Positions 29,648 to 53,732 of a stretch of DNA of 64,000 nt are shown piece by piece (position 1 is the first letter of the stretch; each line of letters starts with the position of its first letter). Source of the DNA: Escherichia coli (GTDB taxonomy: Bacteria; Pseudomonadota; Gammaproteobacteria; Enterobacterales; Enterobacteriaceae); the NCBI RefSeq assembly GCF_003334405.1, contig NZ_QOWM01000003.1; one strand, 5' to 3'. Under the pieces are notes generated by a model. That model ran no database searches and was not told the origin of the DNA. It was given only the letters and a program-made list of their open reading frames with translations. A program made the translations under genes and the position numbers.

Positions 29648-29758
29648 ATGACAATAGAAAAACACGAAAGAAGCACTAAGGATTTGGTGAAAGCAGCAGT
29701 ATCGGGATGGCTGGGCACTGCGCTTGAATTTATGGATTTCAAGAGTCATGCGTGTTAA
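29648..29758 (+). pseudogene. ydfJ: 5' fragment (about 30 codons) of MFS transporter gene ydfJ, truncated at the prophage junction
   Basis: ATG 29648 gives MTIEKHERSTKDLVKAAVSGWLGTALEFMDF, then diverges into KSHAC-stop at 29756-29758; the integrase 3' end lies 20 bp beyond. Confidence 0.6.
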
Positions 29759-29777
29759 CTATTTGATAAATATTAAA

Positions 29778-31073
29778 TTAATTTTTCATTGCTTCGTTAT
29801 GGGGCATGGTTGGGGCAAACTCGCTTAACTGTGTATTTAACAAAGCTACCTGTGCATTATTGTTTTCAGACATCCATTTTCCGTATACCTGAAATACCAT
29901 TTGCGCATCTGCATGGCCCATCTGGTTTGCTATAAATGCCGGGTTAGCACCAGCTGTCAGCGACCAGCAGGCATAAGTATGTCTCGACTGATATGATTTT
30001 CGATGGCGGAGTCCGGCACGTTTTATCGCTGCGTCCCACATCTGCCTTATTGAGTCAACGGTAAAATGGTCACCATAATTTTTTACTCTCGCTGACACTT
30101 CAGGTTGAAAAACAAAGGTGCATTTTTGTTTTTCTGTTCTGCCATACTCTCTGAGGTGAACATCAATGATATGCTCTTTGCTCAGTCTCGTTAATGTCAT
30201 CTGACTCCGGAGAGCGTCGATTGCTGGCTTAATAAGATGAATGACCCGATTGGTTCCCGCCTGTGTTTTTGGTACCGTGAAACGGTCTTTTGCTAAATTT
30301 CTCCTGATCATCATTGTTCCATTTTTCAGATCTATGTCCTCCCATCCAAGTGCACACAGCTCACCAGGGCGAACTCCAGTATAAACAGAAACACACCATA
30401 AATTTTTTGCTTGCTGATTTCTGCACGCATCGATAAGACGGATAAATTCTTCCCGCGAAAGAGGATCCGGAATGGTTCTTGATTCCTTTAATGGCGAGAT
30501 CCCCTTAAACGGATTATCTGCCAGGTAACCGTTATCAACACCAAACTGGAACACGGCGTTAAGATTTGTCATGTAATTATTTACAGTTACAGCCGATCTC
30601 CCTGGTTGTGTAACAATATAGTTACTTTTGGGGATCTGGTATCCAGTCAGTAACTCTTTACGAACCTCCAGTAATTTTTCTTTATTAATCGATGAGGCAA
30701 GATTTTTTTCACCGATTATGCTCAGGATATTTTTGATGACGGCACGGTATGTGTTGAGTGATGTTTTGGCGACTTCAGTTTCTTTCAGTGCCAGAAATTT
30801 TTCAGCCAGTTCTTTTATGGTTAAATCTTGTCGGGCCTCACCAAATTTTTCCAGATTGCGTGAGGAGGGAAACTGTTTTGCATAGTCGAAAACACCAGTT
30901 TTTATTGCGTAACAAACAGAGGAGCGTAGTTCACCTGCAACGCGCCTGTTTTTTGCTGTGTCAGGAACCCCCAGATTTTCCCTGACTCTTACGTCTTTAT
31001 AAACAAACCAGATACGTAATTTCCCTCCATGGTTTTCCACGCCTGTCGGATATTTCATTTCAACTTCTCTCAT
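29778..31073 (-). CDS. Lambdoid tyrosine integrase (apparently full length)
   Basis: 431-aa ORF with catalytic-domain motifs YTGVRPGELCALGWEDIDL, HTYACW and GHADAQMVFQVYGKW; real start may be the ATG at 31058 (MKYPTGV...) which has a GAGAAG upstream. Confidence 0.85.
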   Translation of the reverse strand: MREVEMKYPTGVENHGGKLRIWFVYKDVRVRENLGVPDTAKNRRVAGELRSSVCYAIKTGVFDYAKQFPSSRNLEKFGEARQDLTIKELAEKFLALKETEVAKTSLNTYRAVIKNILSIIGEKNLASSINKEKLLEVRKELLTGYQIPKSNYIVTQPGRSAVTVNNYMTNLNAVFQFGVDNGYLADNPFKGISPLKESRTIPDPLSREEFIRLIDACRNQQAKNLWCVSVYTGVRPGELCALGWEDIDLKNGTMMIRRNLAKDRFTVPKTQAGTNRVIHLIKPAIDALRSQMTLTRLSKEHIIDVHLREYGRTEKQKCTFVFQPEVSARVKNYGDHFTVDSIRQMWDAAIKRAGLRHRKSYQSRHTYACWSLTAGANPAFIANQMGHADAQMVFQVYGKWMSENNNAQVALLNTQLSEFAPTMPHNEAMKN

Positions 31074-48884: not shown

Positions 48885-49459
48885 TGGCATTCAGAATGAG
48901 TGAACAACCACGGACCATAAAAATTTATAATCTGCTGGCCGGAACTAATGAATTTATTGGTGAAGGTGATGCATATATTCCGCCTCATACAGGTCTGCCA
49001 GCAAACAGTACCGATATTGCACCGCCAGATATTCCGGCAGGCTTCGTGGCTGTTTTCAACAGTGATGAGGCATCGTGGCATCTCGTTGAAGATCATCGGG
49101 GTAAAACGGTTTATGACGTAGCGTCAGGGGACGCGTTATTTATTTCTGAACTCGGTCCGTTACCGGAAAATGTTACCTGGTTATCGCCGGAAGGGGAGTT
49201 TCAGAAGTGGAACGGCACAGCCTGGGTGAAGGATACGGAAGCAGAAAAACTGTTCCGGATCCGGGAGGCGGAAGAAACAAAAAACAGCCTGATGCAGATA
49301 GCCAGTGAGCATATAGCGCCGCTTCAGGATGCTGTGGATCTGGAGATCGCAACGGAGGAAGAAACCTTGTTGCTGGAAGCCTGGAAAAAGTATCGGGTGT
49401 TGCTGAACCGTGTTGATACATCAACTGCACCGGATATTGAATGGCCAGCACTGCCGTAG
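48884..49459 (+). CDS. tfa: Tail fibre assembly protein
   Basis: 191-aa ORF; start overlaps the stf fragment stop. Confidence 0.8.
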
Positions 49460-49556: not shown

Positions 49557-50147
49557 TTATATGTCAGGTGTCTGACGTTTTGCTTTGGCTCTTAAAATGG
49601 TTTGCCGCGAGGTTTTGAATTCCCGGGCAATGGCACTTATACTTACACCTGACTTAATTCGTTCGAATACCACCTGTTTCTGTTCTTCATTTAACACAGG
49701 TGGTCGACCAAAACGTTTCCCTGCGCCGCGGGCTCTTACTATCCCGGAATGAGTGCGTTCAAGTAAAAGGTCTCGTTCAAATTCAGCGACTGCTGAAATT
49801 ACGTGCATCATCATTTTTCCTGTTGGACTGGTCAGGTCAATGCCCCCCAATGCTAAGCAATGCACTCTGATACCTGTTTCGGTCAGTTGTTCCACTGTTT
49901 TCCTGATATCCATTGCATTACAACCAAGGCGATCCAGTTTTGTCACAATCAATTGATCACCACATTTCAGGCGAGCAAGCAACCGGTTAAAACCAGGACG
50001 CTCACTGGTTGCTGCTGAGCCGCTAATGTGTTCTTCGATTATTTGCTGAGGTTTGATTTTAAAACCTGCACTTTCGATTTCCCGGCGTTGATTTTCGGTG
50101 GTCTGATCCAGCGTTGATATCCGACAGTAAGCAAAAATTCGAGACAT
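49557..50147 (-). CDS. pin: Serine recombinase, Hin/Gin/Pin DNA-invertase family
   Basis: 196-aa [23 protein letters not shown]... with catalytic Ser in RISTLDQ and C-terminal HTH. Confidence 0.88.
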
Positions 50148-50463: not shown

Positions 50464-50697
50464 TTACATTTTACCATTTAAATTTTGGTTGTCTTTAAGA
50501 ACTGATATCGCTGTTTGTAATAATTCTTTGTTATCCAGCCATGATTTTTTCTTTATGTTTCCTTCAATGTAATCAAGCAATGTTCTGGTATTGATAGGTC
50601 TTCCCTGTTTTGCTACTTCCACTACAGCATCCCCTAGGATAATTCTGACTTCAGGAAGCTGCGCAGGGAACCACTTTAGGGTGTCTTTTGATTTCAT
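50464..50697 (-). CDS. ynaE: DUF1737-like prophage small protein (YnaE/YdfK family)
   Basis: 77 aa from ATG 50697 (MKSKDTLKWFPAQLPEVRIILGDAVVEVAKQGRPINTRTLLDYIEGNIKKK...). Confidence 0.75.
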   Translation of the reverse strand: MKSKDTLKWFPAQLPEVRIILGDAVVEVAKQGRPINTRTLLDYIEGNIKKKSWLDNKELLQTAISVLKDNQNLNGKM

Positions 50698-51657
50698 GAA
50701 TATATTCCTTAAAATATTATTGATTTTCATTGCGATATTGTATGTCTGATTCAGGATATGTTGACTTATACATCGGTTTTGTCTGGGTTATTGGATATGC
50801 CAATCCCTAATTTTATTAGGGCATGACTAAAAATGCTGAATATGATAAGGAGCGAAGTGATTATCAGTATGCTGTTCATATAGCCTCGAATTAGTAATGT
50901 GTTATATATGATATAGTTGACAATTTTTATCCTGGGTGTTCTTAAAGTTCGTAGATAAACATTGTCGTTTCAGGTATACAGGAATGCTAACAGATGGCGG
51001 CAAAAATCAGGCGGTTTATGGCGCAAGCTGAAGTGGCAACTGCAAACTATCTTATGCAGAGACTCTACACGGATTGGGTTTAAAAGTATACATAGATAAC
51101 AGTTTTTATCTGAAGAAGAAAAATATCAAGGTGATATAGCCTATATGCCTTTGATGTGGAGGAATGAATGTGATGGGAGTGATGTATCTGAATAGTTGAA
51201 AAACCGCAGTCACGTCGTATGCAAGAACGTGCTGCGGTTGGTTTGACTTTGATTGAGACGTTTTGGAATTTTTTTTTGTGGCAAAAATGGGGCAAAACGC
51301 TGCAAAAGGGGCAAAAAAGGGGCAAAAAAAGAGTGGATTATCGTAGTTTATTGTTCTCGCTGATGATGTTTAACACATTGAAAAATAAGTAAAACACTTA
51401 TGAGTCAGATAGTTGTGATTTTTGCCCTTACTTGTTCAGATTGTATTGTTCTTTCTTACTAATTTCTTGATTTTGCGACATTTAAAAGCGACTCAATTCG
51501 TTATATGGCATCAGAAGAGTATGCGTCATGCCGGAACGCCCAGCATAAGAAATCTGATATAAAAAACTGTGGCGTGTATGGTACGGATTAGAGGGGAAAA
51601 TGTCAGCACATTTGCGAAATGAATCAAAAAGCCCGCAGCAATGTGCGGGCGTTAGTG

Positions 51658-52173
<516 letters not shown>

Positions 52174-53366: not shown

Positions 53367-53732
53367 TGAATAAATCCTTTAGTTATTTTATTTGCCTTTT
53401 ATCCCCATTTCGGGGAGTGAAAACATCCTAAAGGAGAAGTTCAGTTAGCCGATAAATATCATTTGTTACGCCTTAAGTAAAACCTTAATCAAATAATTTC
53501 TCTGAAATGATAATAAGTCTGGTGAATGTATCGAAGATAATGCATACAAAATAAAAATTATACTTTTAATTTGCTATACGTTATTCTGCGCGGGTTATAT
53601 GCCTTTATTGTCACAGATTTTATTTTCTGTTGGGCCATTGCATTGCCACTGATTTTCCAACATATAAAAAGACAAGCCCGAACAGTCGTCCGGGCTTTTT
53701 TTTTAGAATTGGATAATCCTTATCCAGAGCAT

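Follow-up and report, generated by a model that had tools for sequence, protein, structure and literature searches.

A cluster of short direct repeats lies between a ydfK/ynaE-like gene and uspF in Escherichia coli, and it raises the question which process these repeats serve. The original prediction placed a triple repeat here, near the right boundary of a prophage; both statements are correct. It further supposed that the region probably contains the att core of a Rac prophage or, alternatively, that the repeats could be protein-binding iterons. We analyzed the repeats within a window, by which we mean the whole 64-kb stretch of DNA under study, and in their counterparts in other genomes and phages.

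The repeat array and its genomic setting

The sequence originally quoted corresponds to 51288-51333 and contains three exact copies of GGGGCAAAA. The triple repeat within about 40 bp is present and non-random, but it had been undercounted, as the full register comprises five units, three of them exact, at spacings of approximately 10, 10, 9, and 11 bp (Table 1). A single further exact copy of GGGGCAAAA was found in the 64 kb, at 45793, and is unrelated. The whole-window count is weak evidence alone (4 observed versus 1.04 expected, with at least four copies in 5 of 100 shuffles). Two copies within 40 bp were obtained in none of 600 simulated 64-kb sequences (Markov-1 model, whole-window or local composition). 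It is the clustering, rather than the window-wide count, that carries the non-randomness of GGGGCAAAA.

Comparison of positions 50750-51660 across 5,426 complete E. coli genomes divided the region into three parts. The first part (50750-51241) is common to the Qin prophage, where it includes ynfT, and Qin-type genomes match only up to 51241. The second part (51242-51431) was found only with Rac-type ends in these genomes. Sequence from 51432 onward occurs in genomes with ttcA directly beside uspF, i.e., in unoccupied sites, and a BLAST comparison of an empty ttcA-uspF site with the window also let the host homology start at 51432. The 26 bp that follow are common to attB, attP, attL, and attR and represent the att core. 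Its consensus, TTGTTCAG(G/A)TTGTATTGTTCTTTCTT, contains no GGGGCA, and the Rac-SA53 phage record annotates the same 26 bp (labeled attB there). A search allowing up to three mismatches revealed no second core copy in the 64-kb window. The array spans 101-153 bp from the core, and because it ends 101 bp before it, the array is not the crossover site. The expectation that the att core would lie within 51240-51340 was consequently not confirmed. Core position 51440 carries a private G-to-A change, with G in all 21 other copies examined (attR, attB, attL, and attP). If this position falls in the strand-exchange overlap, the A would hinder recombination with a G-type partner.

In the empty site, the position matching 51432 lies 50 nt inside ttcA from its start codon, and therefore the duplicated piece is the ttcA 5′ end together with its promoter. 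This corrects the earlier description of ttcC as a 3′ fragment of ttcA: the duplicate consists of the first 50 nt, including the start codon, plus the promoter. As ttcA itself is absent from the window, the alignment with the ttcA 3′ end that was originally proposed is impossible here, and it started from a wrong premise. That ttcC is the ttcA 5′ end is also stated in PMC4632033 (Fig. 4 legend) and in PMC6379469.

The body of the prophage, originally regarded as Rac, turned out to be different. The segment 27000-51241 is 99.9% identical to a Qin-like prophage that resides beside rspA/rspB in hundreds of genomes, and only the last 190 bp before the core are Rac-specific, with the junction at 51241/51242. 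Both ttcA and intR are absent from the whole 64-kb window, and the attL and intR cognate to the array were not found within 51 kb upstream. As read from the sequence, the prophage in the window is a hybrid, in which a Qin-like body with its own integrase is joined to the Rac attR arm, ttcC, and uspF. The Rac and Qin prophages of K-12 carry the homologous pin-ydfK/ynaE-ynaM/ynfT block in opposite orientation. The simplest reading of the hybrid would be a Rac-Qin inversion through the shared pin-ydfK-ynaM block, and this suggests that the putative inversion left the Rac attR separated from intR and attL. The Rac arm is orphaned in this genome, and its function here is doubtful because the cognate IntR is absent from the window.

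Just before the point of Rac/Qin divergence, at 51202-51239, a hairpin is found (AACCGCAG…CTGCGGTT, with the loop …GTATGCAAGAAC…). The loop sequence recurs upstream of the P arms of Qin, of an O169 prophage, and of phage CharmingMan, and a sub-threshold Rfam match to CssrB (51099-51236; 27.9 bits versus 76) overlaps the hairpin. The other Rfam matches, IS009 (221 bits) and MicC (125 bits) at 49227-49425 and 53591-53711, are both expected here.

Table 1. Features of the repeat locus and of related att sites. Positions refer to the window unless marked as locus positions.
Feature	Position	Strand	Remark
pin-type recombinase gene	49557-50147	-	upstream of array
ydfK/ynaE-like gene	50464-50730	-	upstream of array
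ynaM/ynfT	50766-50879	-	upstream of array
Rac-type attP P arm in attR form, 190 bp	51242..51431	+	Rac-specific segment between ynaM/ynfT module and core
Array of five phased (G)GGGCAAAA units	51279..51330	+	proposed IntR arm-type sites of P arm; also phased A-tract run
Unit U1, GTGGCAAAAA	51279	+	repeat finder
Unit U2, GGGGCAAAA	51289	+	repeat finder, exact
Unit U3, GCTGCAAAA	51299	+	repeat finder
Unit U4, GGGGCAAAA	51308	+	repeat finder, exact
Unit U5, GGGGCAAAA	51319	+	repeat finder, exact
IHF-consensus-like site TTTCAATGTGTTA, 1 mismatch to WATCAANNNNTTR	51371..51383	-	predicted bending site between array and core
Single inverted motif copy, TTTTTGCCC (= GGGCAAAAA on - strand)	51419-51427	-	repeat finder; 4 bp from core
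26-bp att core TTGTTCAGATTGTATTGTTCTTTCTT	51432..51457	+	common to attB, attP, attL, attR; sequence comparison
ttcC, original ttcA 5′ end, first 50 nt, start codon 51481-51479 (MSQNQEISKKEQYNLNK)	51432..51481	-	left at attR on phage insertion
Perfect IHF consensus AATCAAGAAATTA	51460..51472	-	bacterial (B′) side
uspF	51658-52092	-	downstream of array, with ompN
Perfect IHF consensus	29756-29768		between 29801-29817 pair and host junction
IntR-family (Qin-type) integrase gene of the window	29778-31073	-	42.8% identical to IntR; 3′ end holds pair
Tandem TGGGGCA pair GGGGCATGGTTGGGGCA	29801..29817	+	proposed P′ arm sites of Qin-type attL
Klebsiella KPP5665-2	int-stop pair 2121, second pair 2328 (locus positions)		separation 207 bp
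Enterobacter CobraSix	int-stop pair 2145, second pair 2353 (locus positions)		separation 208 bp
E. coli CharmingMan	int-stop pair 2133, second pair 2342 (locus positions)		separation 209 bp
Aeromonas pAEv1818	int-stop pair 2106, second pair 2314 (locus positions)		separation 208 bp
Qin-type junction, another E. coli	int-stop pair 1703, second pair 1496 (locus positions)		separation 207 bp

The arms of the Rac att site

IntR of K-12 contains an Arm-DNA-bind_2 domain (PF12167, residues 5-69, E 4e-26) and a Phage_integrase domain (residues 205-391). Since an N-terminal arm-binding domain precedes the catalytic domain, IntR is an integrase of the kind that needs arm sites. We found the repeat motif in both phage-derived arms of Rac, on the same strand. 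In K-12 attL, the 26-bp core is followed by TAATTTGTTGATT, ATGGGGCAAATTGGGGGCAAACTTTGCAAC, and the intR stop codon; resolved further, the order is core, TGTAATTTGTTGATT, 40 bp, ATGGGGCAAATTGGGGGCAAACTTTGCAAC, and stop codon. Between the core and the stop codon of intR the motif appears two more times, and the P′ arm holds two to three copies in all, 49-76 bp from the core, which carry only A3.

An exact search for the predicted P-core-P′ junction recovered five viral contigs with an intact attP, in which the Rac-type P arm is joined to the core, the P′ arm, and intR, in the order repeats, approximately 100 bp, core, P′ repeats, and intR. A search of the phage collection with the P-arm DNA returned only two records, both prophage ends. 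One phage record containing IntR was considered as a source of attP and rejected, as it is a prophage with host flanks, and the IMG/VR loci retrieved with IntR mostly end 3 bp after the int stop codon and are uninformative on the arms.

In total, 11 P arms were aligned, namely those of the window, K-12, two other E. coli prophage types, two phage records, and the five viral contigs. At least four unrelated families are represented among the flanks upstream of them. The 11 arms are homologous from the first repeat unit as far as the core, and the repeats rank with the best-conserved blocks. The inverted motif copy close to the core is kept in 10 of the 11. Among Rac-type arms the number of units varies from 2 to 5, and hence not every unit can be essential. 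One intact Rac-type attP (L211) contains two units instead of five owing to a clean 31-bp loss that is consistent with slippage, and the loci L210 and L212 display point changes in single units.

Between array and core we noticed a candidate IHF site, a conserved match to the consensus with one mismatch; consensus matches are not enriched across the window. The block TTAAC..TTGAAAAATAA is kept in 11/11 P arms. On the other side of the core, the base-resolution map in PMC8407004 has an IHF GeF-seq peak at TAAnnnnTTGATW (TAATTTGTTGATT), between the K-12 core and the P′ copies. The same work reports that ttcC holds an IHF consensus but no IHF peak there (PMC8407004).

The array is also predicted to be strongly curved. 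Using an AA-wedge model (our own implementation), we obtained a predicted 37.7 degrees per 30 bp, the second highest value in the 64 kb, compared to a median of 8.3 and a 99.9th percentile of 32.6 degrees per 30 bp for the window. Its five A4-A7 tracts follow each other at about 10 bp, as phased A-tracts do. The sole locus predicted to be more curved lies near 13805.

The motif among relatives of IntR and in other phages

Tandem GGGGCA pairs occur at two places only in the 64 kb, in the array and at the 3′ end of the window's own integrase gene. The second place provides a control within the window itself. For integrases that are 35-43% identical to IntR, TGGGGCA pairs were found at seven attP or att junctions. 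A second pair lies 207-209 bp from the pair at the int stop codon, in the same orientation, in phages of different hosts (Table 1); in every case int is on one strand and both pairs are on the other. The near-constant distance between P′ and P, about 20 helical turns, suggests a fixed intasome geometry. The Shiga toxin (Stx) phage Min27 carries two copies next to int and, in its far arm, eight, which are followed by TGTAACAGATTGAAAAATA; this element lies at the place equivalent to 51371-51383 and matches the conserved Rac element TTTAACACATTGAAAAATAAG. Min27 is annotated with a different core, and its match group includes wrbA-named prophages. Distant members keep the same layout with an altered motif, TAGGGCA in Pseudomonas KT1 and TGGGAACA in phiCTX. 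Downstream of int in Citrobacter phiNP (Int 29% identical) no motif was found, and the att site of this phage is probably located elsewhere.

Relatives replace the A-tracts by TGGA, TATA, CTAT, and similar sequences while keeping GGGGCA. Because GGGGCA is kept and the A-tracts are dropped, the conserved part is the recognition sequence and not the curvature. The conserved function is recognition, and the curvature is a Rac-specific addition that probably helps in Rac, alongside Int binding rather than in its place. Across relatives with different cores, the motif is conserved and changes together with the integrase. A conserved position combined with co-variation with a protein is the classic signature of a protein-binding site.

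The P′ pair of the Qin-type and related integrases falls within the 3′ coding end of the gene, where the arm sites, read as their reverse complement, specify the C-terminal tail (…FAPTMPHN…). One piece of DNA appears to code for the protein tail and to double as a putative binding site. In E. coli SCPM-O-B-9504 (locus 1390-1760), a Qin-type right end is followed directly by a P arm, then by a core-like sequence and a P′ pair, and finally by a second integrase gene, an arrangement that looks like an attP-like junction between tandem prophages.

An exact scan for two adjacent GGGGCAAAA units identified at least 120 viral-contig loci, none of them Rac-like. In 28 of the 60 assessable loci a tyrosine integrase gene ends 0-280 bp from the motif, with the same geometry, and a Phage_integrase domain was present in all 11 representative proteins scanned. 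Most of these integrase-adjacent tandem loci belong to streptococcal phages, and phages of other Firmicutes are represented too. The attP of the pneumococcal phage phiARI0131-1, for instance, has the motif in both arms and contains AAGGGGCAAAAAAGGGGCAAAAG and, 215 bp on, AAAGGGGCAACCAAGGGGCAGAA beside the int stop codon. The N-termini of the IntR family and of the pneumococcal integrases shared no detectable homology in a profile-profile comparison (hhalign, probability 0.4%).

Proposed arm-type sites and alternative explanations

We consider it likely that the array constitutes the IntR arm-type sites in the P arm, i.e., the integrase-distal arm, of a Rac-family att site in its attR form. This reading builds on what the sequences show: how the site is laid out, which domains IntR contains, that both arms carry the motif, and that the motif is conserved and co-varies across the integrase family. 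From these we infer that the N-terminal domain of IntR would be the binder and that the sites would be needed for integration or excision. The array differs in sequence from core-type sites, lies outside the core, and has its motif in both the P and the P′ arm. Some points speak against arm-type sites: the orientation of the motif is the same in both arms, the unit number varies, and the inverted copy lies 4 bp from the core, an unexpected place for an arm-type site.

According to the proposed mechanism, IntR would act as a heterobivalent tyrosine recombinase whose small N-terminal domain holds the GGGGCA(AA) arm sites, with the C-terminal domains binding and cutting the 26-bp core approximately 100-150 bp away. 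IHF, bound to the conserved TTGAAA site (51371-51383), and the five phased A-tracts would fold the intervening ~100 bp. The P′ copies beside the intR stop codon would act likewise on the other side of the core, and both arms together would assemble the integrative or excisive intasome in the manner of lambda.

One alternative would be intrinsically bent DNA, in which the array acts purely through its shape or by attracting a host protein that seeks curvature, for example H-NS or Fis, with no sequence-specific phage protein taking part. The five A4-A7 tracts about 10 bp apart and the second most curved position in the 64 kb (AA-wedge model) would fit, and the array resembles kinetoplast-type bent DNA in the spacing of its tracts and in its strong predicted curvature. 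However, relatives conserve GGGGCA without A-tracts, the Rac P′ copies have only A3, and, in contrast to kinetoplast-type DNA, Rac combines each A-tract with a conserved GGGGC recognition block within a recombination site, where the curvature is a predicted one. We regard bending as sole function as very unlikely. Very unlikely, too, in our view, is that the repeats are sites of the excisionase XisR (YdaQ), acting only in excision. In lambda, the Xis sites X1-X1.5-X2 are head-to-tail direct repeats in the P arm, and the Rac repeats share this arrangement in the integrase-distal arm where lambda Xis binds. XisR itself is a recognizable excisionase (phrog_539). In published EMSA experiments XisR shifted AttR, a fragment of 294 bp, and left AttM, a fragment of 291 bp, unshifted (Liu et al., 2015). 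We mapped the primers of these fragments to 51262-51555 (AttR) and 51141-51431 (AttM). The shifted attR fragment does include the repeats; however, AttM contains every repeat and was left unbound. Moreover, the motif occurs in the P′ arm beside int throughout the family, where Xis sites are not expected, and unlike lambda Xis sites it is thus found in both arms. The mapped primers show that XisR requires the core or what lies beyond it (51432-51555) in order to bind, which differs from lambda Xis binding inside the P arm.

Simple sequence prone to slippage and free of function, or part of a small protein-coding gene, would account for the varying unit number (two units in one attP) and for a 57-aa hypothetical protein that RefSeq places over the array in some genomes (WP_001157925.1, 51219-51392, plus strand). 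Against this, the array is kept across arms with unrelated flanks, and in many lineages its location follows that of integrase genes. The original statement that no credible ORF covers the repeats has held up: the two mechanical ORFs over the array matched no PHROG family, and their start region is missing in relatives. We attach very little probability to either version of this explanation. WP_001157925.1 is lysine/glycine-rich only from translating the repeats and is probably spurious. Over the array, Rfam at a permissive threshold detected no family, and a promoter/terminator scan detected nothing. That the repeats are the att core or crossover region itself, as their closeness to the prophage end might suggest, has practically no likelihood left, given that the homology to the unoccupied ttcA-uspF site begins at 51432 and that the array is without counterpart in attB or on the bacterial side of attL. 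Of the iterons that had been offered as a fallback, the idea of protein-binding repeats survives and fits best, but the replication sense fails, as there is no adjacent replication gene and the motif is tied to integrase genes. Replication iterons were accordingly rejected as a candidate; the neighbors of the array are ynaM/ynfT, the hairpin, the att core, and ttcC.

IntR arm-type sites, as the favored explanation, can be compared with well-studied systems. The attP of lambda contains P1 and P2 in the P arm, P′1-P′3 in the P′ arm, and the IHF sites H1, H2, and H′, and its arm-type motif is C/AAGTCACTAT. Like lambda, Rac has a heterobivalent tyrosine integrase whose N-terminal domain is of the arm-binding kind; in both, short direct repeats occupy the two arms at 70-150 bp from a short core, and the P′ sites, separated from the core by an IHF site (in Rac, that of the published peak), adjoin the int gene. 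The order in K-12 attL matches the lambda P′ layout of core, H′, and P′1-3. In contrast, the Rac motif GGGGCA(AA) is unrelated to that of lambda, and the arm-binding domain belongs to another Pfam family, PF12167. Rac has five contiguous, helically phased putative P-arm sites instead of two separated by H1, both its arms have the same orientation, and an A-tract is fused to each site. The 933W-type Stx phage Min27 and other PF12167 phages share with Rac homologous integrases (35-43% identity) and TGGGGCA pairs at the int stop codon and in the far arm; in addition, the TAACA.ATTGAAAAATA element of Rac recurs in Min27. Unlike Rac, these relatives use different cores and insertion sites, lack the A-tracts, and mostly have one pair per arm at a fixed separation of ~207 bp; furthermore, their P′ pair overlaps the coding end of int, whereas the Rac pair is intergenic.

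In the open-access literature we found no experiments on IntR binding or on att-site mutants and no description of the Rac, Qin, or 933W arm sites. Nor did it yield anything relevant on 933W attP repeats, on phiCTX attP, or on the motif as an arm-type site. Measured against this literature, the proposed Rac arm sites represent the ordinary lambda-type principle with a different integrase family and a different word, unmapped before for this phage family; earlier papers on related att sites may have reported the motif. As a mechanism, this is lambda-type recombination of the textbook kind, useful to know for annotation, and will not surprise specialists.

For one of the best-studied bacteria, the analysis supplies the anatomy of the Rac att site that had been missing, comprising proposed arm sites, a likely IHF site, the core, and the duplicated ttcA 5′ end, and it corrects the position of the crossover. 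It also provides a signature, since tandem TGGGGCA pairs at the int stop codon and ~207 bp away locate attP arms, including those of Shiga-toxin phages. This signature would be of use for delimiting prophages, for predicting excision-competent ends, and for building integration vectors. More tentatively, and with rather more doubt than confidence, GGGGCA pairs ~207 bp apart could be an "arm code" of the whole PF12167 family (Rac, Qin, and 933W-type Stx phages), with the recurrence in Firmicutes phages arising by old conservation or by convergence. If this were true, co-resident prophages could compete for, or borrow, each other's integrase arm contacts.
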